Under the pieces are notes generated by a model. It was not told where the DNA came from. It worked only from the letters and a program-made list of their open reading frames with translations, and did not search any database. A stretch of DNA of 64,000 bases from an uncultured Candidatus Saccharibacteria bacterium (lineage in GTDB: Bacteria > Patescibacteriota > UBA1384 > 2-12-FULL-50-11), in contig CAZRED010000002.1 of assembly GCA_964599405.1 (NCBI GenBank), forward strand, positions 44,198 through 108,197, in the 5' to 3' direction. Shown piece by piece: positions 3,113 through 62,551 of the stretch. How positions within the stretch are numbered: the first letter of the stretch is position 1; every line of letters begins with the position of its first letter. A program made the position numbers and the translations under genes.

Positions 3113-4006
3113 ATGCCGTTAGTTATTTTTTGGTTGACACCAGTGGCTTTAGTTCTGGTTTTGGCGTTACTACTTATTCGCGTCCAACCGAAACATCGGC
3201 CGAAGCTGATCTTAGTTGAACCGCTACTACTGTTAATTAATCAGTGGCACGTTAGCCGGATTGTCGGTAATGAATCGGCCGTCCGCCGGCAGCTAGCGCT
3301 GTGGCAGGAGGGATTAGAGCTCAACCAAAGCGTTATTGAACAGCTGGCCCGTCAGATTATCAAAGCCCCTGGCGCCAAAGCTAATCCAGCAACAATTTTG
3401 GAGCAGCGCCGGCTGCCGTTTTGGGCCGAGCAACGTCTGGTGGAAACACTTGGTAAAAAAAACGCCGTTCTCTGCGGGCCGGTCGGCGAGTTGTTGGAGT
3501 ACTGTAATGTCGATGAGAACGGCGAATTAACTGGTTCGAAGCGGCAAGAATGGCAAGATTTAGCAGCGACAGCCGCTCGTAACGGTTTCATGGCCTTAGC
3601 GTTTGCAGAAACTAGTGGCAATGCCGAGTTGGCCGACAAATCCTACCAATTCATTGGTCTGGCCGTGCTGGAACCAGTTTACAACCAAGAAATGTCGCAA
3701 AAGCTCCGCTCATTAGCTGCGCAAGGCCAGCTGCGCTTTCTTTCCTTTTTGCCCATTGCCCTGCTGGAAAATATCCGGGAAAAAATCTTGCCTGCTAATG
3801 CCCCGCCCAATACTGTTTCAGGCGAGGAGTTGCAAGAAATGCCGCCGGCCGAGCAAGAAGCGGCCATTGAGCGCTCGGTTATCTACGGCGGAATTCCCAC
3901 CCGCCACCGCTACTACATTGCTCGGCAATTACAGCGCCACCACGAGCTAATTGTTGCCTCACGTTTGCCGCAAGACAGCGACATCCCGGCCGATTTACTA
4001 CTGTAA
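3113..4006 (+). CDS. hypothetical membrane-anchored protein
   Basis: 297-aa ORF with an N-terminal TM helix. No recognisable domain. Confidence 0.35.
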   Translation: MPLVIFWLTPVALVLVLALLLIRVQPKHRPKLILVEPLLLLINQWHVSRIVGNESAVRRQLALWQEGLELNQSVIEQLARQIIKAPGAKANPATILEQRRLPFWAEQRLVETLGKKNAVLCGPVGELLEYCNVDENGELTGSKRQEWQDLAATAARNGFMALAFAETSGNAELADKSYQFIGLAVLEPVYNQEMSQKLRSLAAQGQLRFLSFLPIALLENIREKILPANAPPNTVSGEELQEMPPAEQEAAIERSVIYGGIPTRHRYYIARQLQRHHELIVASRLPQDSDIPADLLL

Positions 4007-11924: not shown

Positions 11925-12790
11925 TGGACATACCGAAAAAGATAAGTGACTTAGGCCTACAGCGAGGCCACTATATTGTAATTGGCAGCGGAGTAATGGG
12001 CGCTCTAAACTTGCGACCAATTAACGACATTGATTTGGTCGTTAACCCAAATAAATATGCAGAACTCAAGAACAGAGATTGTGTTGAAAAAGTTCATGAC
12101 GATGAAACCAGGGAGCTGCTCTTCGGTGTCTACGGAATTAAAACCAGCTGGGACTCACCTAATAGCGGCGATAATTTACAGGAGCTGCTTAGCGATTCAA
12201 TTGAAATTGAAGGTGTTGCGTATATTAGCCCCCAACGCTTACTACGTTGGAAGAAGCGGATGAAACGTGCTAAAGACAAGAAAGATATACTGTTTCTAGA
12301 AAAATTCCTAAATACTCAACAAGACAGATTCACAGAAAAACCAACTTTGTACATAATGTGCGGCTTACCATTTGCTGGTAAATCGAGGTTAGCAAAAGAG
12401 CTAAGCGAAAATCGTGGCTGGAAGGTAGTAGCAGTCGACGAAATTAAAACCAAACGTGGGCTACGTGATGTTTGGCAAGATATGAAACCAGAAGATTGGA
12501 CAGATATTTTTGCAGAGGCAGAGCGTCAAACGGAGAGGGAGTTATTAGGCGGTCGAAGTGTGATCTATGACTCAACTAACCACACCAAACATAGCCGGGA
12601 TAAATTGCGTGAGCTTGCAAAACGTTGCCATTGTTCAGCTAAGTTGATTCTGGTTGATGTGTCTCCTGATGTTGCCGAGTTTAGGTGGAAAGCCAATAAG
12701 GAGTCTGGCGAACGGATGGATTTGCCGGAGTGGGCTTTCCGAACGGCTCTTGGCGACTGGGAACCACCGGTAGGGGATGAGCAGGATTAG
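11924..12790 (+). CDS. fusion protein: minimal pol-beta-type nucleotidyltransferase (N-term) + P-loop kinase of the AAA_33/zeta-toxin/chloramphenicol-phosphotransferase-like class (C-term)
   Basis: N-terminal IGSGVMGALNLRPINDIDLVV (G[SG]…DxD NTase motif). C-terminal Walker A CGLPFAGKS plus DEIK/DSTN kinase-like motifs. The start overlaps the Nudix stop. Confidence 0.55.
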   Translation: MDIPKKISDLGLQRGHYIVIGSGVMGALNLRPINDIDLVVNPNKYAELKNRDCVEKVHDDETRELLFGVYGIKTSWDSPNSGDNLQELLSDSIEIEGVAYISPQRLLRWKKRMKRAKDKKDILFLEKFLNTQQDRFTEKPTLYIMCGLPFAGKSRLAKELSENRGWKVVAVDEIKTKRGLRDVWQDMKPEDWTDIFAEAERQTERELLGGRSVIYDSTNHTKHSRDKLRELAKRCHCSAKLILVDVSPDVAEFRWKANKESGERMDLPEWAFRTALGDWEPPVGDEQD

Positions 12791-13065
12791 ACACAAGACC
12801 GAAAGAGTGCGAACTCAAGTAGGTCTTAGCTTTTAGCGGGCTATCCTAGCGCTCGGGCAAATCCAACCGATAAAACATGTAACGTTTTTACAAAACTAGC
12901 TGAAACCAATTGATTTGTTACTAATATTTCTATAAAATTTCTCTGACTTAGCTCGTTTACATTTTGGCTGACAGGTAACTTTGGGCGGTAAGTGTTATAA
13001 GCAAGAACTGCTTTTAACAAACCGACTTTAGATTCAACAGATTCAGCTGAAAAGGAATCCGCAAG

Positions 13066-14136
13066 ATGAAAAAATTTAACTCTACTTCCCGTGAAATGCA
13101 GGACAATTTTTTCGCTTGCCGAGGTTGGAGGCGAAAAAAATGTCCACACTGTTTCGGAGAATACTACACGAAACGCGACCTACCACACTGCGGCTCTTAC
13201 CTGTGTGCTGGCAGCTATTCGTTCCTTTCTTTCCCTTCGCCAAAGGCACAGCTCGATATGGCGGCATGTGTTCGCAGGCTACAGACGTCCTTCATTGGCC
13301 ACGGCTACCAACTTCACCGACCGATCGCAGTTGTCCGTAATAACGAGCGAACCCTTTTCGCAAGTACGGCTGGCCAGATTTATGACGATCTGATCTACGG
13401 ACAGATATCAGAGAGCAGCTCGAAGTGGCACTTAGTAGTTCAACCGGTGATCCGGTTGCAGGAGATCGATCTCATTAGCTCCATCGACGGGATCTCCAGC
13501 TCGTTCATACATAGTGCAACTGAGTGTTGGAACACTACACAGGGTAACCACCTTGAGACGTTTGATCGCTGGTTGGATTTCTTTTCCGCCCTCGGTCTAC
13601 ATGCGGGCGGTTTCTGTCTTAAGATCGAGCGTGACACCAATAATTGGGCAGGACGCACTATCACGTCAGAGATGCTTCGGGTGCATTACGGTGGGCTTGA
13701 GGTTGGTGTTGCAAATTTCTTTTTCGACATTTCTCAGCCAAACGGTTCCCTGGCGACTCTGAGCGATGTTGGCGTAGGCCTAGAACGATTAATATGGGCC
13801 GTAAACAAATCGCCTATGTATTTGGATAGTATTGGACCTCCCCCGTGTGTTAGAATGCACACGAGGGTAGTGCTCCACGCAATCCGTACGGCGACGCTTA
13901 TGGCGGGTTCGGGTGTTGTGCCAGGTCATAGAAACCATGGGTCAAAGCTTCGCGCTATGATCAGGTTAGTGACAGAGGAGGCACATCATCTCAATCTTTA
14001 CGAACTCGTAAGCCATTACTACCGACAGTGGTCCACATTTGCGGATTATCTTTCGGTACCTCAGGAGCAGGTTTACTTGATAATTTGGGGAGAAATTAAT
14101 CGAGAACTCAGTCTTGGGGCTGACAGGAATCAGTGA
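13066..14136 (+). CDS. truncated alanyl-tRNA synthetase catalytic-core paralog (class II aaRS fold) with an N-terminal Cys-rich insertion. Lacks the tRNA-recognition, editing and C-Ala domains.
   Basis: Colinear with the AlaRS N-terminal domain: NFFACRGW ~ FLDFFHSKGH; RTLFASTAGQIYDDLIYGQ ~ PTLLFTNAGMNQFKDVFLG; LEVGVANFFFDIS…SDVGVGLERLIWAV ~ IEIWNLVFMQFNR…VDTGMGLERIAAVL; LHAIRTATLMAGSGVVPGHRNHGSKLRAMIRL ~ [32 protein letters not shown]. A CPHC…HC…C insertion of about 45 aa sits after the first motif. Confidence 0.6.
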   Translation: MKKFNSTSREMQDNFFACRGWRRKKCPHCFGEYYTKRDLPHCGSYLCAGSYSFLSFPSPKAQLDMAACVRRLQTSFIGHGYQLHRPIAVVRNNERTLFASTAGQIYDDLIYGQISESSSKWHLVVQPVIRLQEIDLISSIDGISSSFIHSATECWNTTQGNHLETFDRWLDFFSALGLHAGGFCLKIERDTNNWAGRTITSEMLRVHYGGLEVGVANFFFDISQPNGSLATLSDVGVGLERLIWAVNKSPMYLDSIGPPPCVRMHTRVVLHAIRTATLMAGSGVVPGHRNHGSKLRAMIRLVTEEAHHLNLYELVSHYYRQWSTFADYLSVPQEQVYLIIWGEINRELSLGADRNQ

Positions 14137-14146
14137 GAAAAACCAT

Positions 14147-14821
14147 ATGAAAACAAAAACCAAACGTATCTTTCTCGGCGGGGGTGGGGATGCAGAGGAC
14201 TCGAAGCTTATTGATGAACAATTCGTCAAGAGCATTGATCCATCAAAACCTACCATATACGTCCCTAACGCTATGCCCTCAGAGGGCTATCAGTCCTGCC
14301 TGGACTGGTTCCGACCAACAATGAAGGCGCTCGGTATAGCTACAATCGAAATGTGGGAGGATCTTCTCCCCCACCGCCCAATCAACGACATATCTGGGAT
14401 TTACATCGGAGGAGGCGATACGGTGAAGTTGCTAGATGAAATTCGTACCGCTGGCTTTGATCAGTACCTCTCCCAAGTAGCGCAAAGTGGCATCCCGTTG
14501 TACGGTGGTAGCGCTGGTGCGATTGTCTTTGGCGAGGACATTAGAACCGCACCAGAAGCGAGCCACCTAACACCAGGTGATGCAAAGGGACTTAGGATCC
14601 TAGTAGGTCACTCAATCATGTGTCACTACGAACAGCAAGATGAGACGCAAGTCCGGACACTCCAAAAAACAATTGGGATGCCAATCATTGCTATTCCCGA
14701 AAAAGCCGGTGCATGCATCGAGGGAAAAACACTGACGAATTACGGCTCAGTTCCGCTGTATATCTTCCGGGACAACGAGGAAACAGGGCTAGACACAGGA
14801 GAATCCCTTGAACTCGAATAA
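14147..14821 (+). CDS. peptidase family S51 protein (peptidase E / cyanophycinase-like class I glutamine amidotransferase-like fold)
   Basis: IYIGGGDTVKLL…YGGSAGAIVFGEDIRT parallels PepE IVIVGGGNTFQLL…YIGWSAGANLACPTIRT (Ser nucleophile motif). ATG at 14147 chosen; an upstream TTG at 14114 would overlap the preceding gene. Confidence 0.65.
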   Translation: MKTKTKRIFLGGGGDAEDSKLIDEQFVKSIDPSKPTIYVPNAMPSEGYQSCLDWFRPTMKALGIATIEMWEDLLPHRPINDISGIYIGGGDTVKLLDEIRTAGFDQYLSQVAQSGIPLYGGSAGAIVFGEDIRTAPEASHLTPGDAKGLRILVGHSIMCHYEQQDETQVRTLQKTIGMPIIAIPEKAGACIEGKTLTNYGSVPLYIFRDNEETGLDTGESLELE

Positions 14822-14828
14822 CAAAATT

Positions 14829-14868
14829 GGGGGTGTATCACTTAGCGTGCGTACACCCCCTTCTTTTT
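14829..14868 (+). terminator. terminator-like hairpin immediately upstream of the MAT start codon
   Basis: gggggtgta-(14 nt)-tacaccccc followed by ttcttttt. The RBS AAGGA and the ATG of the next gene lie within 10 nt downstream. Confidence 0.55.
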
Positions 14869-14875
14869 AAGGACA

Positions 14876-16123
14876 ATGTCTTACTCCTTTGGACCAAGCG
14901 CAATTAAAAAAGGAAACCTGACTGTATATTCCCGTAGCCCGGTCTGGGACAGTGAGTTCGAGACAATTGAAAGAAAAGGAATCGGGCATCCAGATACTAT
15001 AGCCGATATTTTAGCTAGTAAAGTAAGTCAGGAGTATTCGAGGTATACCATTACACATTGTGACAAGCTCGTTCTTCATCACCAGGTAGATAAACTCATG
15101 ATTATTGGTGGAAAAACTAAAGTCTATTTTGGCGGAGGGGAGTTCACTGAGCCAATTCGTATTATTGTTGCCGGTAGAGCAACATATAACTACAAGAACC
15201 TGGCTATCCCCGTTGAAAATATTGTGCTTAATACAATTAAGGCATATTTTCTGAAACATTTCCCGATGGTAAATCCAGAAGAAGATTTAGTTATTGAGAA
15301 TAGACTCACTACGTACCCTGGACCAGGAACAATCACAACATCGGCGGGTGCTATTGCTAGGATGTTTAATCCTAGAACCGCGAAAGAAGTAAGAGGGTAC
15401 GAAAAATATGTAGCAAATGACACTTCTTACTGCATCTCTTATTATCCTTATTCTTCGCTCGAGACGGCCGTCCTTGGACTGGAGTCTTATTTACAGTCAC
15501 TACAAATTAAGAAAAAGTTTCGGTGGATTGGCTCGGACGTCAAGATAATGGCAGTAAGGAATGGCAACAATGTGGAAGTAACTATGTGCATTCCACAAAT
15601 ATCCGGACAAGTAGAGTCGCTTAATAACTACTGGGAAAACTTAGAAATAATCAGCCCGCTGGTTAACGAGTTTCTTAATAAGAAGTGCCCAAAGTATGAT
15701 TTTAATATCTCTATTAATACAAAGGACGATTACGAGAGGTTCAACGTCTACCTAACTTACACCGGGGCATCGTTATCGGGAGATATTGGTGTGGTTGGGC
15801 GTGGCAACAGAACTAACGGACTCATTACTTCCAACCGGCCGATGAGTGCAGAAGGTACAAATGGTAAAAACCCAAGATACTATTCAGGATTTATATATGG
15901 CGTACTAACAAAACAAATATCGAAGGCACTATTCGATAAGTTGGGGAAACCTGCCGTAGTTGAGATAGTCTCTCAAAACGGGGGGAATTTATTAGAACCT
16001 TGGGAGGCAAGAATCGTTTGCGAAGCAGATCCAAAGAAAATCCAGAAGGTATATGAGTCTTGTTTGAGTAAAATACCCCGTATTACAACAGACTTTATTC
16101 GGGGCAAGATTGTGAATTACTAA
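14876..16123 (+). CDS. archaeal-type S-adenosylmethionine synthetase (methionine adenosyltransferase, PF01941 type)
   Basis: Near-colinear with M. jannaschii MAT: [13 protein letters not shown]; [24 protein letters not shown]…IVAGRAT; [14 protein letters not shown]; [20 protein letters not shown]…[28 protein letters not shown]. Not the bacterial MetK fold. Confidence 0.85.
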
Positions 16124-16130
16124 TACAGGT

Positions 16131-16622
16131 ATGAAGTACCAACCCCTTTTGCGCCACATCGAGATAAAGAGATCCGCTAGAGACGAAGACCTGGCGATAG
16201 TAGTTTTTAAACCCTCATGTCCCCGTGAGGCGATAGCCCGGTTTAGGAGTTATTGCTCAGAGAACCATATCAGTATTTTGCAAAAGAAAGAGACCCTACT
16301 CTCTCGAGATGCTGTTGTCGCTCTTTACCCTAAAATCTTTTCGTTTTCCAATGAGGATCTGAAATTTGGACTCGCTTGGAAGAAACAAACGATTGATTAC
16401 CTAACTTCTGCGCCGAGCAGATGTTTCTTAGTAGGGGGAGAAGATGTTTATAGTAAGTTGTCAAAATATAAATACCGCCTTCGTGACCGGTATGGAAAAA
16501 TTACCCATCCTAAGGCAGTTTTATCTACTGAAGATTTTTTTGAAAAAGTTATAAAAAACATCGTTCATGTTATTGATGAGCACGAGCTCCAAAACGGTCT
16601 CTGGGTATTATTTGATAACTAG
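16131..16622 (+). CDS. nucleoside-diphosphate-kinase-fold protein (divergent NDK-like)
   Basis: AIVVFKPSCP ~ NDK FSIIKPNAV; NIVHVIDE at the position of the catalytic NxxHGSD His; overall length and spacing match the NDK fold. Confidence 0.45.
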   Translation: MKYQPLLRHIEIKRSARDEDLAIVVFKPSCPREAIARFRSYCSENHISILQKKETLLSRDAVVALYPKIFSFSNEDLKFGLAWKKQTIDYLTSAPSRCFLVGGEDVYSKLSKYKYRLRDRYGKITHPKAVLSTEDFFEKVIKNIVHVIDEHELQNGLWVLFDN

Positions 16623-17131
16623 CGGCTATTCTTAATAAATTCTTTGATGACTTGAATGTCCCGGAGCTGTTTTTCTCCATGTAGATAGCTCTTATACCGG
16701 ACCATCTTGTCTGGCTTCATCAATTTCAATCTCTTCCCAGCCCAGTTAACAGGATATGTGTCATTCAAACTGTACCTGAAGATTTTCCACTCAGAACTTG
16801 CATCGTCAAAAATTTTTTGTGAGTCCCCATTGGTTAGTTCTATTATTTGACCTTTATAATTCAAAGCCATCATCAGAACTACCCACTCGCTGTCTATATA
16901 CAATTCTGGCCCAAATTGCACAAATTTCCCAACTTTTTTGAGCAAGCGAGGAAAATCTTTCTCTTGTATATCAATATCAATGTCGTTAATTGGTCTGTCG
17001 GCACCGTAGAAGCGTGCGGCCACTCCGCCCAAGACTTGGTATGGGATATTCTCTTCTTCTAGAATAGAGATGATCCACTTCAGCGCCACGTTAACTCGTG
17101 GAGTTAGGCTGATGGGGCTTAATTCAAGCAT
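16619..17131 (-). CDS. small-molecule nucleotidyltransferase of the Lnu(A)/lincosamide-nucleotidyltransferase-like family
   Basis: YQVLGGVAARFYGADRPINDIDIDI resembles LnuA YWLDGGWGVDVL…HRDIDIDF; about 170 aa, as in that family. Confidence 0.6.
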   Translation of the reverse strand: MLELSPISLTPRVNVALKWIISILEEENIPYQVLGGVAARFYGADRPINDIDIDIQEKDFPRLLKKVGKFVQFGPELYIDSEWVVLMMALNYKGQIIELTNGDSQKIFDDASSEWKIFRYSLNDTYPVNWAGKRLKLMKPDKMVRYKSYLHGEKQLRDIQVIKEFIKNSR

Positions 17132-17154
17132 CTTTTTATGCCATAATCATTACA

Positions 17155-17652
17155 ATGTTTAAAGGGTTGGAGCAAATCAATACTAGCAGTAACGCTAATC
17201 AAAACTTTGCGTTAGTCCTCCAGCTAACGGAGAAGATAGATAACAATGCAGACGCTTCATCGGTTATCAATGAGCTGATAAAAATATACTGGGATTTAGA
17301 CGGAGTCCCTCGCTACCATATAATAGTAAGTTTTATCGAGCATAACCGTACAGACGTATTAGGATTCCTTAAAAAGGTTTTATCTGAAGACACAAGCGAA
17401 CTGATCCGTCATGAGGCCGCTTTTGGTATCGGACAGATGGGAGACTCTACGCAACAGTTCGCACTAGCCGATTCTCTTAAGAACGATACTTCAGCTATTG
17501 TACGTCATGAAGCCGCTATTGCGTTAGCAACTGTTGGAAGCCGGCAATCTATAGGAGTCCTGCAAGAAGTAATAAGTGACGCTAGCGAAGAAGAAGTAGT
17601 GACTGAGTCGGCCGAGTATAGCCTCCGTCTGATTATAGAAAGTAGTAAATAA
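17155..17652 (+). CDS. HEAT/PBS-lyase-type repeat protein
   Basis: Two tandem repeats IRHEAAFGIGQMGD / VRHEAAIALATVGS typical of HEAT-like (PBS lyase) repeats. Confidence 0.55.
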   Translation: MFKGLEQINTSSNANQNFALVLQLTEKIDNNADASSVINELIKIYWDLDGVPRYHIIVSFIEHNRTDVLGFLKKVLSEDTSELIRHEAAFGIGQMGDSTQQFALADSLKNDTSAIVRHEAAIALATVGSRQSIGVLQEVISDASEEEVVTESAEYSLRLIIESSK

Positions 17653-17658
17653 AAATAA

Positions 17659-17687
17659 GGCAACCACATAATGTGGTTGCCTCTTTT
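17659..17687. terminator. bidirectional rho-independent terminator between convergent genes
   Basis: ggcaaccaca-taa-tgtggttgcc with T-rich runs on both sides. Confidence 0.75.
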
Positions 17688-17697
17688 GGGTTGTCTG

Positions 17698-18765
17698 TTA
17701 CCTCCCAGCGATAAAGTCCTCGACTTTCTGCCTGGCTATCCCCAGTGACACTAGGTGCAGTGGGTGTTTGAAGAAGTAGGCGCTCCAATCCTGGTAGCCA
17801 GAGAGGTTTCTGTCTAACGATAGCTTCATAGCGCGAACTGCATCAACCATCACTCCAGCGTTGTTTGGGGAGTCTTCGACTGACATCTTCATCTCAATCT
17901 CAAAGGGGAAGTCACCAAACTGCCTTCCCTTGATATTGATGTAAGCAATCTTATTATCGCCGAGGAATCGTATATAGTCAGCCGGGACTACCTTTATGTC
18001 CTCGGTGCCAGCTTCGAAGATGATTGGATCGGTCTTTGACACCTTCTTCGAAGTAAGACGCAGATGATCTGTGAGGTTGTCAAAATCCATATTCCCACCT
18101 ATGTCCAGTTGGTAGGAATTCTCTACGATTTGTCCACGCTCGCGGACTAGAGATACGAGTGTTCGGTGAAGGATAGTGGCACCAACCTGGCTTTGGATGT
18201 CATCCCCGGCGCACGGAATACCGGCTTGCCTAAACTTCTCCGCCCAGACTGGGTCGGATGCAATAAATTCAGGCACGCCGTTTATAAACGCAACTCCTGC
18301 GTCAAGACAGGCTTGGGCGTAAAACCGCGTCGCTTCCTGTGACCCTACCGGCAAGAAAGAAATACAAATTTCCGTATCGCTCTCTCTAAGTTTCCTGACA
18401 ACAGATTCCGGCTCTTCTCGGAGGGGGAAGTACTCACGCATATGCGGTGCAATTCCATCTCCAATAAAACCCGCCTCAACTGCTACGCCATATGTAGGCA
18501 CGCAAGCGAACTTATGGGAGTTCGTGGGCAACACCCAAATAGCTTCGGAAATGTCTTTGCCAATTTTATTAGCGTTTACGTCGAAAGCGGCAACTACCTG
18601 TATATCTGCAATGAGATATCCGCCAAAGTCATTGTGCATGAGGCCCGGTATGGGAGGTGATGTTTGGCCAACGTCCTTATAGTACTCGAGGCCCTGGATG
18701 AAGGAACTGGCGCAATTTCCCACGCCAACGATTGCGATTTGAATCTTTTTGTTTTTTCTAGTCAT
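17698..18765 (-). CDS. myo-inositol-1-phosphate synthase family (NAD-dependent cyclitol synthase)
   Basis: N-terminal Rossmann IAIVGVGNCASSFIQG (cf. GxGGNNGST); GDDIQSQVGATILHRTLVSLVRERG ~ MIPS GDD(I/L)KSGQTK…; SYQLDIGGNMDF ~ SYNHLGNNDG. Confidence 0.65.
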   Translation of the reverse strand: MTRKNKKIQIAIVGVGNCASSFIQGLEYYKDVGQTSPPIPGLMHNDFGGYLIADIQVVAAFDVNANKIGKDISEAIWVLPTNSHKFACVPTYGVAVEAGFIGDGIAPHMREYFPLREEPESVVRKLRESDTEICISFLPVGSQEATRFYAQACLDAGVAFINGVPEFIASDPVWAEKFRQAGIPCAGDDIQSQVGATILHRTLVSLVRERGQIVENSYQLDIGGNMDFDNLTDHLRLTSKKVSKTDPIIFEAGTEDIKVVPADYIRFLGDNKIAYINIKGRQFGDFPFEIEMKMSVEDSPNNAGVMVDAVRAMKLSLDRNLSGYQDWSAYFFKHPLHLVSLGIARQKVEDFIAGR

Positions 18766-18944
18766 TGTCTTTTCCTGTAAAGGTCCAGGGAGCGGTTCTC
18801 CCTTATGGTTTGGAATTCTACAGTTTTGTTAATTGATAATCAATACAATAACTGGTGATTCTAAAAATTATTTATCAAGTAGTTGATTAAGAGCTATCTG
18901 GTCGTGCAAGTCTTGCTTACGATCCTAAATATGGGCATAATATC

Positions 18945-18973
18945 TTGACTCTTCTCGAGAAGTGTGGTATAAT
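18945..18973 (+). promoter_or_regulatory. sigma70-like promoter (TTGACT-17 bp-tgGTATAAT, extended -10) for the GNAT gene. Predicted near-leaderless transcript.
   Basis: -35 at 18945-18950, -10 at 18968-18973 with a TG at -15/-14. The ATG at 18988 lies about 8 nt from the predicted TSS with no SD. Confidence 0.55.
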
Positions 18974-18987
18974 TTTAGCTCGAGTGA

Positions 18988-19593
18988 ATGCACATGAACA
19001 GAATCAACTTTAGACTCGCAAGAGGGGAAGAAGAGCTGTATGAAATATTAGCTCTGCGGTATAGAATCTTTGCGCTCGAAAAGGGGTGGATCGCAACGAA
19101 CCCAAGTGGCATTGACTTTGACCAGTGGGATTTCGCAAGCAGCCACCTTTGTGCCGTGGATGAATCTGGCAAGGTACTTGGTACCATGAGATTGATTCAC
19201 AATTCGCCCTTCGGATTCCCTGGTGAAGCCGCTTGTCCGTGCTTAATTGGTTCGTCGAAAGATCGGACTTATGAAGTATCGAGACTTGCTGTCGAGGAAC
19301 AGGAAAGAGGAAGACGCTCGCTAATCCTTATTGGTCTCTGCAGGTTAGTGCCTAGACTGGCAAAACTGCACAAGATTGATGATTGGATTGTGGTAGTGGA
19401 CAAGCCGGTTGCAAGAATTCTGAAAGGCCTAGGTTTCAACTTTGACTTCACTGGAGAGGTTGTTGACCATTTGGGATCACCGTGCGTTCCGTTGAGATGC
19501 ACCATGACCGAGGCAAGAAGAGTTCTATACCAGCCAAACTTATCGGAGCTTTTGGCAACTCACATCGAGGAAGCCTATGAGACTATCGAATGA
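18988..19593 (+). CDS. GNAT-fold N-acyltransferase of the autoinducer-synthase/FeeM N-acyl-amino-acid-synthase-like family
   Basis: LRYRIFALEKGW…VSRLAVEEQERGR pattern typical of PF13444 / exosortase-associated N-acyl amino acid synthases. Confidence 0.55.
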   Translation: MHMNRINFRLARGEEELYEILALRYRIFALEKGWIATNPSGIDFDQWDFASSHLCAVDESGKVLGTMRLIHNSPFGFPGEAACPCLIGSSKDRTYEVSRLAVEEQERGRRSLILIGLCRLVPRLAKLHKIDDWIVVVDKPVARILKGLGFNFDFTGEVVDHLGSPCVPLRCTMTEARRVLYQPNLSELLATHIEEAYETIE

Positions 19594-19600
19594 CCCATGA

Positions 19601-19625
19601 CGGCCGCATTACTGCGGCCGTTTTT
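19601..19625 (+). terminator. rho-independent terminator
   Basis: cggccgca-ttac-tgcggccg followed by ttttt. Confidence 0.8.
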
Positions 19626-19661
19626 GTTTAGATTTTTATCTCTAGGTGGTACTTTGGAAAT

Positions 19662-20465
19662 ATGGAAATATTTAATTATTCAGATTTTACACAGAGAAAC
19701 ATTGGAATAATATCCGTTTCTGATCAAGAAAAAGTGCGAACCTCTACGATCGCAATTGCAGGATGTGGGGCAGATGGTGGAGCACCCGCTATATCACTAG
19801 CAAGACTCGGCGTTAGTAATTTTAGGCTAGCAGATCCAGATGTTTTTGATTACAGCAATATTAATAGGCAGGAAGGTGCATTTACTGACACCATTAATAC
19901 GAAGAAAGCAAGGGAGATTGAATTAATAATAAAAAAAATAAATCCAGAGGCTAATGTCACAATCTACACAGAGGGTATTAATGAAGACAATGTGAATGAG
20001 TTTATTGAAGGGTCAGATATCGTCTTGGACGAGATAGACTATAGAAAGCCAAAGTATGCGCTTCTATTACACATAGTGGCGAGGAAACTGAATATCCCAG
20101 TAATTACTACTGTATCAGTTGGGTGGAACGCTTTTCTTTTCTATTTTGATCCATCTGGACTCACGTTTGAGGAGTACGTAAAAAAGGAGCCTCTTTCTGT
20201 TGAAGATAATTTTGAAGTAAACCCTTCTGCTTACGCACCAGAGTTACCCTCATATATTTCTGAAGAACTTTTAAAGGATATACTTTCAGAAAAAGTGGAG
20301 ATACCAGTTGTAGATCCCGCTGTTAGATTGGCGTCTGCACTAGCAAGCTCCTTTTGTATTTTTTGGTTGACTGGCGCAAAGAAGATAATGGCTGTTCCCC
20401 ATTATTACTCGGCGGGTGATTTATTACTGAAGCAGGAAAGCTTTAATAATTTGCGTAGGTCTTAA
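19662..20465 (+). CDS. ThiF/MoeB/E1-like adenylyltransferase (stand-alone, 267 aa)
   Basis: Rossmann nucleotide-binding motif IAIAGCGADGGAPAISLARLGV. No rhodanese, E2 or peptide-clamp domain, and no adjacent ThiS/MoaD-like ORF. Confidence 0.75.
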   Translation: MEIFNYSDFTQRNIGIISVSDQEKVRTSTIAIAGCGADGGAPAISLARLGVSNFRLADPDVFDYSNINRQEGAFTDTINTKKAREIELIIKKINPEANVTIYTEGINEDNVNEFIEGSDIVLDEIDYRKPKYALLLHIVARKLNIPVITTVSVGWNAFLFYFDPSGLTFEEYVKKEPLSVEDNFEVNPSAYAPELPSYISEELLKDILSEKVEIPVVDPAVRLASALASSFCIFWLTGAKKIMAVPHYYSAGDLLLKQESFNNLRRS

Positions 20466-43123: not shown

Positions 43124-43270
43124 AGCGGCACGTTGTTTGAGCGACTTACGCAGCCGTCTTGGCACGGTCGCACCCCTGGTGCGCAAGCGGCGAGGAATTA
43201 AGCGTAGCGATTTTGCGAAGCAAATTCTGAACAGAGGTGATGATTCGCTGGACGAGCAAGCGGTCGCGAA
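43124..43270. repeat. left copy of a ~140-bp inverted repeat pair (partner at 45985..46122)
   Basis: Its reverse complement matches 45985-46112 with about 88 % identity over about 130 nt (shared core …cgcttgctcgtccagcgaatcatcacctctgttcagaatttgcttcgcaaaatcgcta…cttaattcctcgccgcttgcgc…ccaagacggctgcgta.gtcgctcaaa). Confidence 0.8.
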
Positions 43271-43328
43271 AATAATGTGACGCTCGTAGCTAGCTTGCCT
43301 TTTTCCAGGTATTTGCCAACATTGAGGT

Positions 43329-45952: not shown

Positions 45953-45984
45953 TGAACGGGGCGGAAGCTCTTCTCGCGACCGCT

Positions 45985-46122
45985 TGCTCGTCCAGCGAAT
46001 CATCACCTCTGTTCAGAATTTGCTTCGCAAAATCGCTATGCTTAATTCCTCGCCGCTTGCGCCCATCGGGCGACCATGCCAAGACGGCTGCGTACGTCGC
46101 TCAAAGAGTCCCGCCCCTTAGC
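45985..46122. repeat. right copy of the inverted repeat pair
   Basis: See left copy. Ends about 35 nt before the -10-like TATAAT (46143-46148) of mnmA. Confidence 0.8.
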
Positions 46123-49277: not shown

Positions 49278-49285
49278 CGCATTTC

Positions 49286-49420
49286 TTTGCAGAGGACAGG
49301 GGGCTTAGTTGCGAAGCAGCCCCCTATCCTCTGCACTCCAACCCCCGCACGCTTCTCTACGAGGTGTGGAGAAAAACGGGCTCATAACCTGCTGTGGGTT
49401 AGATTCGCACCGTTTTTCAG
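49286..49420 (+). repeat. copy A of a two-copy structured element (~135 nt; partner 62213..62354). Candidate cis-regulatory RNA.
   Basis: Long hairpin GCAGAGGACAGGGGGCU-UAGUUGCGAAGC-AGCCCCCUAUCCUCUGC. It is followed by the conserved ACUCCAACCCCCGCACGC, then a variable region with shared blocks (GUGGAG…GGCUCA…ACCUGCUGUGGGU) ending in a U-run. Confidence 0.7.
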
Positions 49421-49469
49421 CTATTTCTATCTAGAAATAAGACATCTTTTCCCTTAAACTAAGGGGGAA

Positions 49470-52354
<2,885 letters not shown>

Positions 52355-52624
52355 GTATTGATTCCTAATCCTATATATAGGATAATCCCTTTGCATACTG
52401 TAGTACGCCTTTTGGGCTTGATGAAGTAAGTAGGCCTGGTGCCGAGAAAGCTGACCACTTGTTGGTCCATAGGGTATGTCGGGGTTGGGCAACCATTCCT
52501 GGGAGAGGCGTCATCGCCAGAACCTAAAGTCCAGGTCCACACAAGTGCGCCGAGACAGATTCGACCCCGCCGGTACCGGCGGGGTCATTCAATTTTAAAT
52601 AAAAAAAGCCGCTAGCCGGGTGGG

Positions 52625-53197
52625 CTAGCGGATGATCGAAGCGATCAGGTTGTGCTTCAACGCCTCTTTGGCGGTGAAGCGGTGGGATTTGAACCACATC
52701 GCCCTGGTAGTCGAGTAGCTCTTTCCCATTGCCTTGGCAAGGGCGCGGATCCACTGAACTTCCCTTTTCTCAGCGAATTCTGTCTCCAGAAACTCTTCTG
52801 TTAGGCGTCGTTTCCGTTCAGCGATGGATTGTTTGCTGACGGCATCGCAACCTCGTCCCATTGGGTGGATCATGATGATTGCGCCAGTAGAAGCGAATCT
52901 TTTTTCGCGTGGGAGCGAAAGGAAGACCCTAACCCCAGCCGACATTACGTATGTCATAGCGATGATCTGGAGATCGACAAAGCTACTGGCGAACTTAATT
53001 CGCTCGGCAACTGCATCTCCATCGACAGAATTACCCCCAGTTGTGGACAGAAGAATGGTTGCCTTCTTCACCTTGTCATCACTATTGACGATCTTCTCAA
53101 TTGCGGCGTCGAACGACTTGATCATGCCAGAGTCGACGTCTCCCGTCAGAGTGATGAGGGTTCCAAGTTTCTTCAGGTTGTTAATCTTCAATCTCAA
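52625..53197 (-). CDS. divergent ClpP-family serine protease (phage prohead-protease-like), not a housekeeping clpP
   Basis: LITLTGDVD ~ ClpP IIFLTGEIND. Ser in VMSAGV ~ AASMG and His in IMIHPMG ~ VMIHQPLGG. Too divergent for a canonical clpP. It sits between a ligA 3'-end duplication and has its own terminator (gccgctagcc-gggtg-ggctagcggc-T7 at ~52603-52631 on the minus strand). Confidence 0.55.
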   Translation of the reverse strand: MRLKINNLKKLGTLITLTGDVDSGMIKSFDAAIEKIVNSDDKVKKATILLSTTGGNSVDGDAVAERIKFASSFVDLQIIAMTYVMSAGVRVFLSLPREKRFASTGAIIMIHPMGRGCDAVSKQSIAERKRRLTEEFLETEFAEKREVQWIRALAKAMGKSYSTTRAMWFKSHRFTAKEALKHNLIASIIR

Positions 53198-53281
53198 TAC
53201 CTCCGTACTGTGTTGGGATTATACCCCGAAACATAGAAAAAGTCAATCTGTTGAGGTAATATTTTACTCCTTGAAGCCCAA

Positions 53282-53336
53282 AAACTTGGTGCGAAGGTTT
53301 TGAGCGAAAAAGAGTTTCTGAAGTTAGTTGGGTAGG
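53282..53336 (+). repeat. degenerate duplicate of the ligA 3' end (encodes …[20 protein letters not shown])
   Basis: About 80 % nt identity to ligA 52300-52354, which encodes …[20 protein letters not shown]. With ligA it brackets a 0.93-kb segment containing the ClpP-like gene. Confidence 0.6.
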
Positions 53337-62171: not shown

Positions 62172-62212
62172 TATTGTTATTCTAACAGGTTTAGAAACCT
62201 AAATCATTGTTT

Positions 62213-62354
62213 TTTGCAGAGGACAGGGGGACTAGTTGCGAAGCGTCCCCCTACCCTCTGCACTCCCACCCCCGCACGCTGCCCCGGGCGGGTGGAGCAA
62301 AAGCTGGCTCACGGACCTGCTGTGGGTCAGGCTCGCCGCTTTTGCGCTTTTTCG
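62213..62354 (+). repeat. copy B of the structured element (partner 49286..49420)
   Basis: Same hairpin with compensatory changes (GGGGGAC…GUCCCCC versus GGGGGCU…AGCCCCC). Conserved ACUCCCACCCCCGCACGC. Ends in GCCGCUUUUGCGCUUUUU. Begins about 45 nt from the prfA start on the opposite strand and about 200 nt upstream of rpmE. Confidence 0.7.
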
Positions 62355-62551
62355 TGTAAGGGCAGATGTTATTCGAAAAGTGTGTCGGAGACACTTTTGC
62401 TTGGTGTCGCTAATGCGACAAAAGTGTTGAGACGCAAGCCGCCGGTTTCGCTGGAAAACTGGACGGCGTCTTTGAGAGTAATATCTGCCCGCCACCCCGC
62501 CAACCTGTTGATTACCATATTTTGTTCTGTTACAATTTCTTGGTAAATACG

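Follow-up and report, generated by a model that had tools for sequence, protein, structure and literature searches.

Two copies of a structured element

The DNA analysed here is a stretch of 64,000 nt (the window, by which we mean this whole stretch) of contig CAZRED010000002.1 from an uncultured patescibacterium, in which two intergenic spacers hold copies of the same structured element on the plus strand. Copy A spans 49283–49427, between the stop codon of lemA (49277) and the start of htpX (49470), and copy B spans 62210–62353, between the start of the divergent prfA (62171, minus strand) and rpmE (62552, plus strand). Both sit where a preliminary description of the window had put them, with the borders refined as given here. 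The two copies align with ~80% identity across ~145 nt, far above chance, and they match the covariance models described below at 134–139 bits (copy A, E ~1e-38 to 1e-40) and 152 bits (copy B). The 19-mer CACTCCMACCCCCGCACGC has exactly two occurrences in the window, where 0.05 would be expected, and the sequence of copy A recurs identically in the Logan contig L037. On the plus strand both copies fold more stably than dinucleotide shuffles of themselves, with z-scores of -5.8 for copy A and -2.8 for copy B.

The open reading frames (ORFs) that run across the copies had been called spurious, and we agree: they have no Pfam match, no genes are called there in the relatives, and the indels that separate the copies are not multiples of three. 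Gene callers placed no ORF over any copy in the relatives whose gene calls were visible. Several other identities were considered and set aside. A small toxin ORF on the opposite strand, of the Sib/Ibs-like kind, is not conserved, and indels disrupt every frame. A tRNA-like reading of GGGCTCATAACC in copy A was negative in ARAGORN, and the motif is not kept in the other copies. Conserved core motifs of hammerhead, HDV-like and twister ribozymes are missing, as are Rfam matches to them. A partial inverted match at 14178–14198, a potential third copy, falls inside a peptidase S51 gene and is attributed to chance.

Architecture of the unit

The modelled layout of the unit is a T-run, a long 5' hairpin, a C-rich core containing CACGCU with a small hairpin, and a predicted intrinsic terminator composed of an A-tract, a hairpin and a U-tract. 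Similarity between copies extends from the T-run to just past the U-run, and the flanks share nothing. In copy A the left border is the T-run TTCTTT (49283–49288); its counterparts are TTTTTT/TATTTT in copies A to F and CTTTTC/TTTTTC in copies H and I (the copies lettered C to I come from related genomes). The 46-nt hairpin that had been recognized in both copies is found at 49289–49334 in copy A and 62216–62261 in copy B, and both sequences fold. This hairpin 1 has an outer stem of 8–9 bp, a conserved internal C/A mismatch, an inner stem of G4-5 paired with C4-5 and the apical loop GCGAAGC. The paired substitutions previously noticed in its inner stem are genuine, with C-G/U-A in copy A against A-U/C-G in copy B. 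Both copies also have the loop motif, the C-rich block, the terminal U-runs and the islands of shared sequence.

The C-rich block of copy A, ACTCCAACCCCCGCACGC (49335–49352), includes the hexamer CACGCT, invariant in all nine copies, and ACCCC is near-invariant among them. It overlaps hairpin 2 (CAC-G-CUNCC...GGNGG-GUG, 49348–49368), whose U·G wobble is kept in 8 of the 9 copies; in copy B the block and hairpin 2 occupy 62262–62279 and 62275–62294. Beyond them lies hairpin 3, a stem of intrinsic-terminator type between an A-tract and a U-tract. It is formed by AAAAACGG...CCGTTTTT at 49372–49417 in copy A, where the U-run is 49413–49417, and by GCAAAAGC...GCTTTTGC at 62297–62345 in copy B, where a second U-run (62348–62352) follows and the feature as a whole runs to 62353. 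A simple terminator scanner missed this hairpin because it is branched and its loop exceeds 8 nt. Nonetheless, the sequence features of a Rho-independent terminator, an A-tract, a GC-rich hairpin and a U-tract, are found at the 3' end of all nine copies, and the stem covaries. In copy I the hairpin has been replaced by an unrelated GC-rich terminator hairpin with its own U-run. The A-run and U-run flanks, the covarying stem and this unrelated replacement together suggest that hairpin 3 behaves like a terminator.

In copies G and H a further small GC hairpin (GCGGCTTGCAGCCGC / GCGGCCTGCGCCCGC, followed by CTGG) directly precedes the unit on its 5' side, at L041:2280-2302 and L044:17507-17528, making the unit ~22 nt longer in that sub-lineage. 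In the models the C-rich block may also pair with a downstream GGGTGG-like (GGGUGG) block, a helix with weak compensatory support. A possible pseudoknot, in which the apical GAAGC would pair with a GCUUC further downstream, was dropped, as it could form only in copies A, F and H. A role of the C-rich block as an anti-Shine-Dalgarno seed (CACCUCC in copies D and E) was also rejected, since most genes of the window have no Shine-Dalgarno sequence and many look leaderless.

Compensatory base changes

Covariation was tested on the alignment of nine copies fitted to the covariance model, with controls in which pairing partners were slid by 1–3 columns and with 500 shuffles. Of 44 pairs, 23 had changed on both sides, compared with 4–9 in the slid controls. 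Paired cells amounted to 87.7% (40–51% in the slid controls) and the covariation score was 0.386 (0.08–0.10). On four of the five measures none of the 500 shuffles matched the real alignment; on the fifth, the number of further pair types, the alignment is indistinguishable from shuffles, 161 of 500 of which reach its value. Both-side changes affect 10 of the 19 pairs in helices 4 and 5, which belong to hairpin 3, and 7 of the 9 pairs in the outer stem of hairpin 1.

Since this alignment is fitted to the model, the test was repeated on a MAFFT-only alignment that is blind to structure. Both-side changes were again found in the outer stem of hairpin 1, at 7 of 8 pairs, with the compensatory variants GCAGAGGA/UCCUCUGC, GCAGGAGG/CCUCCUGC, GCGAGAAC/GUUCUCGC, GUGGGGAC/GUCCCCAC and GUGAGGGC/GCCCUCAC. 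The covariation first noticed in two copies therefore holds and strengthens with nine. The element is therefore under selection for base pairing and is not random intergenic DNA. Watson–Crick covariation by itself separates neither RNA from single-stranded DNA nor one strand from the other.

Distribution in related genomes

A GatA search and contig look-ups yielded the syntenic region of nine related genomes (GatA 72–88% identical), in addition to the source organism. These relatives belong to a Patescibacteria/Berkelbacteria-like lineage. Covariance models, proposed in the preliminary description as a way to search related genomes, were built from five and then from nine copies and run against the window and the 8–21 kb regions of the relatives. 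They detected nine copies at seven distinct intergenic sites in six genomes, with scores of 55–153 bits, and a search of 240 kb with the second model (R2, nine copies) added none, degenerate ones included. The site between the divergent prfA and rpmE is occupied three times, by copy B in the window, copy E in L036 and copy H in L044. The remaining sites are occupied once each: lemA–htpX by copy A in the window, the spacer between an rlpA-like gene and rsmA by copy C and that between dnaB and pcrA by copy D (both in L003), the space between the convergent ligA and clpP-like genes by copy F (L036), the spacer between a CAP-domain gene and mnmA by copy G (L041), and that between a ctpA-like gene and a small ORF by copy I (L048). 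No copy was detected in four related genomes within the 12–21 kb regions scanned.

Copy density is low, at 2 per 64 kb in the window and 0–2 per 8–21 kb in the relatives. The scan of GTDB species genomes for the exact pattern gave a single match in a relative: L003, a Patescibacteria metagenome-assembled genome that carries copies C and D and is the sole true relative recovered in this way, the two other GTDB matches being due to chance. All exact-pattern matches in metagenome and viral collections were chance matches, and BLAST against phages returned none. At gathering thresholds, Rfam 15, which the preliminary description had suggested consulting, matched nothing anywhere in the window, the copies included; permissive scans returned only generic miRNA-hairpin matches (11–28 bits against thresholds of 42–120). 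As no description of such an element was found in the literature searched either, we regard the family as previously undescribed; it is lineage-specific, low-copy and dispersed.

Occupancy of sites turns over between genomes. The dnaB–pcrA and rlpA–rsmA spacers are filled in L003 and empty in the window, with flanking proteins 58–85% identical; the ligA/clpP site is filled in L036 and empty of the element in both the window and L039. Several relatives have no element at lemA–htpX and prfA–rpmE, and the htpX and rpmE leaders of L038, L047, L048, L050 and L051 lack it. Even where one site is filled in two genomes the occupants can differ, as copies B and E at prfA–rpmE are different subtypes in genomes whose GatA is 88% identical.

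The two halves of the unit group differently. The 5' module clusters by type across genomes (copies A, B, C and F are 78–89% identical, D and E 75%), and the 3' module clusters by genome (C/D 89%; B/E/F 82–84%; G/H 85%). Judged by eye from the alignment rows, copy B equals copy F over the first ~72 nt, through hairpin 1 and the C-rich block, in different loci and species; across the whole 5' module their identity is 89%. Since the 5' module groups by type and the 3' module by genome, these histories point to recombination or conversion between copies, and to a constraint on the 5' module at the level of its sequence.

Orientation and strand

All nine copies, and thus all seven independent sites, have the element on the plus strand, which is the leading, gene-rich strand with positive GC skew throughout the window and ~70% of the genes. 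Under random orientation the two-sided probability of seven out of seven is ~0.016. At six of the seven sites the upstream gene is co-oriented with the element. At most sites a co-oriented gene ends 3–25 nt before the unit (43 nt at copy G), and in copies A, D and F the stop codon is only 3–5 nt away.

The predicted structure supplies further indications of the strand. In hairpins 2 and 3, read on the plus strand on which the structure itself was predicted, there are 24 G·U cells against 9 A·C cells. On the minus strand the terminator-like hairpin would come ahead of the conserved core, and an A-run would follow hairpin 1. Evidence as to strand conflicts, as discussed below, and we favour the plus strand as the functional one on account of architecture and orientation.

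Promoters around copy B

The rpmE promoter, of sigma-70 type (TTGATT-17-TACAAT with an upstream TG), lies at 62508–62536 on the plus strand, ~150 nt downstream of copy B. Its TACAAT box (TGTTACAAT) is conserved directly before rpmE in the window and in all six relatives compared, whether or not they have the element. Copy B is thus outside the rpmE leader, because the conserved rpmE promoter is downstream of it. On the other side, the 38-nt spacer between prfA and copy B is filled by a putative prfA promoter on the minus strand (62179–62207), read from the sequence as ATGATT-17-TAGAAT ending 7 nt before the ATG. The same layout can be read in L036, as GTGATT-17-TAAAAT-7-ATG. A TAAAT-like hexamer upstream of copies B, C and E was considered as a promoter of the element and rejected: at B and E it is the -35 box (TAAATCA) of the putative divergent prfA promoter.

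Possible roles of the element

We give about even chances to the reading that the element is a low-copy, locus-hopping structured module acting as RNA on the plus strand, where it would form the end at which the upstream transcript terminates and might also yield a processed small RNA. From its sequence we infer that the unit is transcribed, acts on that strand, serves in termination or as a 3' end, and might have some trans-acting function. The element would be transcribed as the tail of the mRNA of the co-oriented upstream gene; its RNA would fold, and its own terminator would end the transcript, so that the mRNA would finish in a stable fold at its 3' end. If the RNA were then cut at the U-rich 5' border, a free RNA of ~140 nt could result, in the manner of small RNAs derived from 3' untranslated regions (3'UTRs). 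Copies would be gained, lost and exchanged between intergenic sites, which would amount to locus hopping along with recombination between copies.

The sample of nine copies is small, and several observations weigh against such a role. Neither copy A nor copy B is preceded by a sigma-70-like promoter. The prfA–rpmE site, which holds copies B, E and H, has no upstream co-oriented gene, and its 38-nt spacer is the putative divergent prfA promoter, so that transcription of these three copies is unexplained. Shine-Dalgarno use is weak in this genome, which undercuts an anti-Shine-Dalgarno seed role for the C-rich block. The non-Watson–Crick cells of hairpin 1 on the plus strand are 6 A·C and no G·U, and the minus strand folds better by 3–10 kcal/mol in all nine copies. 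Finally, the empty and filled orthologous sites and the subtype differences at a single site fit a mobile DNA element equally well.

That main rival, which we consider somewhat unlikely, holds that the copies are non-autonomous mobile DNA whose hairpins are single-stranded DNA structures recognized by a transposase encoded elsewhere, as in PATE-like elements derived from IS200/IS605 or in REP/RAYT-like systems. They would insert in one orientation relative to replication, and the terminator would be incidental or selected to limit harm. Orthologous sites that are empty in close relatives, with seven sites occupied in six genomes, are what such an element would produce, as are the differing subtypes at one site in genomes with 88% identical GatA and the matching 5' ends of copies B and F at different loci. 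The presence of all copies on the strand with positive GC skew, which is leading-strand sequence and also the lagging-strand template, and the lack of a promoter of their own also favour it, and the conserved mismatches of hairpin 1 resemble the imperfect palindromes of transposon ends. Copy F, which replaces the last ligA codons, is perhaps flanked by an imperfect direct repeat, GGCTAAT/GGTAAT.

However, that repeat, seen by comparison with the empty L039 site, occurs around copy F only, in genomes too diverged for exact junctions, and there is no consistent target sequence or target-site duplication. Terminal inverted repeats are lacking in the nine copies, whose two ends (first 30 nt, last 35 nt) share exact inverted matches no longer than 0–5 nt, and the left and right end hairpins are unrelated to each other. 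A transposase, reverse transcriptase or recombinase was not found among the ~30 otherwise unannotated ORFs scanned in the window or among the annotated neighbours in the relatives, and no Y1/HUH transposase is among these ORFs and neighbours either. Copy number is low, and the element is absent from the viral and phage collections searched. Swapping of the right-end hairpin in copy I and the grouping of 3' modules by genome are unexpected for a transposase recognition site; the swap fits the evolution of a terminator.

A further reading, that the element represents a new class of self-propagating structured RNA modules in Patescibacteria, each a small RNA that bears its own terminator and spreads through an RNA or single-strand intermediate, with the conserved 5' hairpin and C-rich core binding a lineage-specific protein or target, strikes us as unlikely. 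If it holds, no regulatory or mobile small-RNA family would have been described before this one in these bacteria, which are reduced and depend on hosts. Spread in this way would account for the coincidence of the unit borders with a transcript start and the end of the U-run.

We judge it quite improbable that the copies are stand-alone, trans-acting sibling small RNA genes with their own promoters, pairing with G-rich targets through a single-stranded C-rich seed. The resemblance to known sibling small RNAs lies in a 5' hairpin, a conserved unpaired C-rich block, a Rho-independent terminator, a length of ~140 nt and several paralogues per genome. Near-invariance of CACGCT and ACCCC speaks for this reading, as do the sequence types of the 5' module, which are shared between species, and a terminator module that varies from genome to genome. 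Yet there is no promoter-like site upstream: none precedes copies A or B, and the upstream flanks of the nine copies share no motif beyond the T-run. Units A, D and F begin 3–5 nt past a stop codon, and the spacer of B and E is the putative prfA promoter. Moreover, the loci are not syntenic, unlike the usual conserved small RNA genes, the C-rich block of several copies is, by prediction, mostly taken up in pairing with the G-rich block downstream of it, and the genome makes little use of Shine-Dalgarno sequences.

An RNA made from the minus strand, antisense to the local gene direction, seems very unlikely to us. It would turn all hairpin 1 mismatches into G·U pairs, giving an uninterrupted helix of ~20 bp, and its minimum free energy is lower in all nine copies. 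That lower energy is, however, largely the usual bias toward the G-rich strand. Such an RNA would start with the A-tract, hairpin and U-tract, which would stop transcription before the conserved core; the conserved G·U pairs of hairpins 2 and 3 would become A·C, and hairpin 1 would be followed by an A-run and not a U-run.

Weakest of all, and hardly credible, is the proposal of the preliminary description that the element is an attenuator or riboswitch-like leader of htpX and rpmE-rpsB-tsf, switching through alternative pairing of the C-rich block: the terminator-like hairpin at the end of the element and the co-orientation with the downstream gene, seen at 5–6 of 7 sites, speak for this, but copy B precedes the rpmE promoter, which relatives lacking the element also conserve, copy F sits between convergent genes with no co-oriented gene downstream, the neighbours at the seven sites (htpX, rpmE, rsmA, pcrA, clpP-like, mnmA and a small ORF), once compared, prove functionally unrelated, the orthologous sites, including those of htpX and rpmE, are empty in close relatives, no riboswitch or leader in Rfam matches, and forcing the G5 tract of hairpin 1 onto the C-rich block costs 11–25 kcal/mol in nine of nine copies, with a pair probability of at most 1e-8.

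The element is tied to no particular neighbour gene, and we do not take it to regulate that gene in cis. The same description offered a small RNA family as its other option, and this is still viable where the cis-regulatory half is contradicted. It had also named a high-copy, randomly oriented dispersed repeat as the finding that would overturn a regulatory reading. The element is in fact dispersed and untied to genes, but it is neither high-copy nor randomly oriented: against the tens to hundreds of copies per genome in both orientations of such a repeat, there are two copies in 64 kb and one orientation in nine of nine.

Other features of the region

Inverted repeats of a second family lie in the window at 43136–43272 and 45971–46105. 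The arms are ~135 nt long (92 nt complementary at 98% and 36 nt at 94%), intergenic, and flank the eamA-tatD-cvpA/CAP genes; each folds at -52.6 kcal/mol and contains TTTTGCGAAGCAAA. This repeat is absent from the nine relatives, and in L041 copy G occupies the position of its right arm.

Between the ligA stop and the convergent clpP-like gene lies an insert of ~250 nt (52355–52625) that neither L036 nor L039 nor the other relatives have. It opens with a promoter-like TTGATT-17-GATAAT and closes with a strong terminator, GACCCCGCCGG-TA-CCGGCGGGGTC, with a T-rich tail. From these features it is a candidate unannotated small RNA; Rfam gave no match to it (the best, isrJ, scored 21.6 bits where the threshold is 37). 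In L036 the same spot is taken by copy F. The last ~49 nt of ligA (52293–52341) are repeated with 86% identity at 53274–53322, beyond the clpP-like gene (52625–53197, minus strand), and this duplication of the ligA 3' end on the far side suggests that the clpP-like gene was inserted into the 3' region of ligA.

Filler of ~150 nt between copy B and the rpmE promoter (62357–62505) is unique to this genome and contains more hairpins, among them a terminator-like GTGTCGGAGACAC followed by TTTT at 62382–62394. The L036 filler at that site contains a repeated GGATATTGAT(T/A)AGG motif. At the other site, the contig of L036, the relative with 88% identical GatA, begins 201 nt upstream of htpX; this sequence (L036:1-201) is unrelated to the element and ends in its own terminator, CCCGCACC-GAAC-GGTGCGGG with TTTT. 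Even close relatives thus differ in the lemA–htpX spacer.

In many genes a -10-like box precedes the start codon by 6–8 nt and a Shine-Dalgarno sequence is missing (prfA, with TAGAAT-7-ATG, and also those at 3113, 10744 and 46156), which suggests from sequence that leaderless or very short-leader mRNAs are widespread. The region 12000–20000 has a GC content of 0.44–0.45 against ~0.50 and may be acquired DNA; it encodes an archaeal-type S-adenosylmethionine synthetase (PF01941), a myo-inositol-1-phosphate synthase-like gene, an acyltransferase resembling FeeM/autoinducer synthases and several ORFs without a family. In L003 a small ORF that looks by eye like a GIY-YIG (UPF0213-like) protein lies at 1267–1527, between pcrA and the rlpA-like gene, and tblastn found no counterpart of it in the window.

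Comparison with known systems

Attenuators and riboswitches resemble the element in being structured RNA-like sequences that end in a terminator-like hairpin and a U-run. The element differs from them in that it is not in a leader, is not linked to a class of genes, has no plausible antiterminator and is absent from the orthologous leaders. It would be tempting to annotate the element as a riboswitch or a ribosomal-protein leader, and the present analysis corrects that error.

REP/BIME elements of enterobacteria, ERIC/IRU, the Correia elements of Neisseria and the pneumococcal BOX and RUP elements are short intergenic repeats that are transcribed together with adjacent genes and present in tens to hundreds of copies per genome. 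Like them, the element is non-coding and intergenic, often follows stop codons, forms stable hairpins, may terminate or stabilise mRNA and differs in presence between genomes. It shares no sequence with these repeats, is far less numerous (~2 per 64 kb), and lacks terminal inverted repeats, a REP-type GTAG motif and a clear target duplication; its three-part architecture with a built-in terminator and its single orientation are atypical of them.

PATEs, derived from IS200/IS605, and REP/RAYT systems move by single-strand DNA transposition. Imperfect hairpins in place of terminal inverted repeats, the absence of an obvious target duplication and an orientation bias linked to replication are common to them and the element. 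In the latter, however, the left and right hairpins are unrelated and the right one is replaceable, as copy I illustrates, no conserved 4–5 nt target lies by the left end, and no Y1 transposase occurs at the loci examined.

Small RNAs with C-rich seeds that are derived from 3'UTRs or occur as siblings include RsaE/RoxS, the LhrC family, the pneumococcal csRNAs and CpxQ-type 3'UTR small RNAs. Here the likeness consists of a length of ~100–150 nt, a 5' stem-loop, a C-rich stretch, a Rho-independent terminator, several paralogues and copies located after stop codons; the differences are the lack of an Rfam match and of a promoter, the non-syntenic loci and a C-rich block that may be paired. To our knowledge, non-coding RNAs and repeat elements are almost unknown in the Patescibacteria (Candidate Phyla Radiation). 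The covariance model should be useful for annotating their genomes and for avoiding spurious ORF calls, and the element may explain some contig breaks and differences in intergenic size. Set between small RNAs on one side and mobile elements on the other, the family poses the question of whether minimal genomes still use the former or tolerate the latter.

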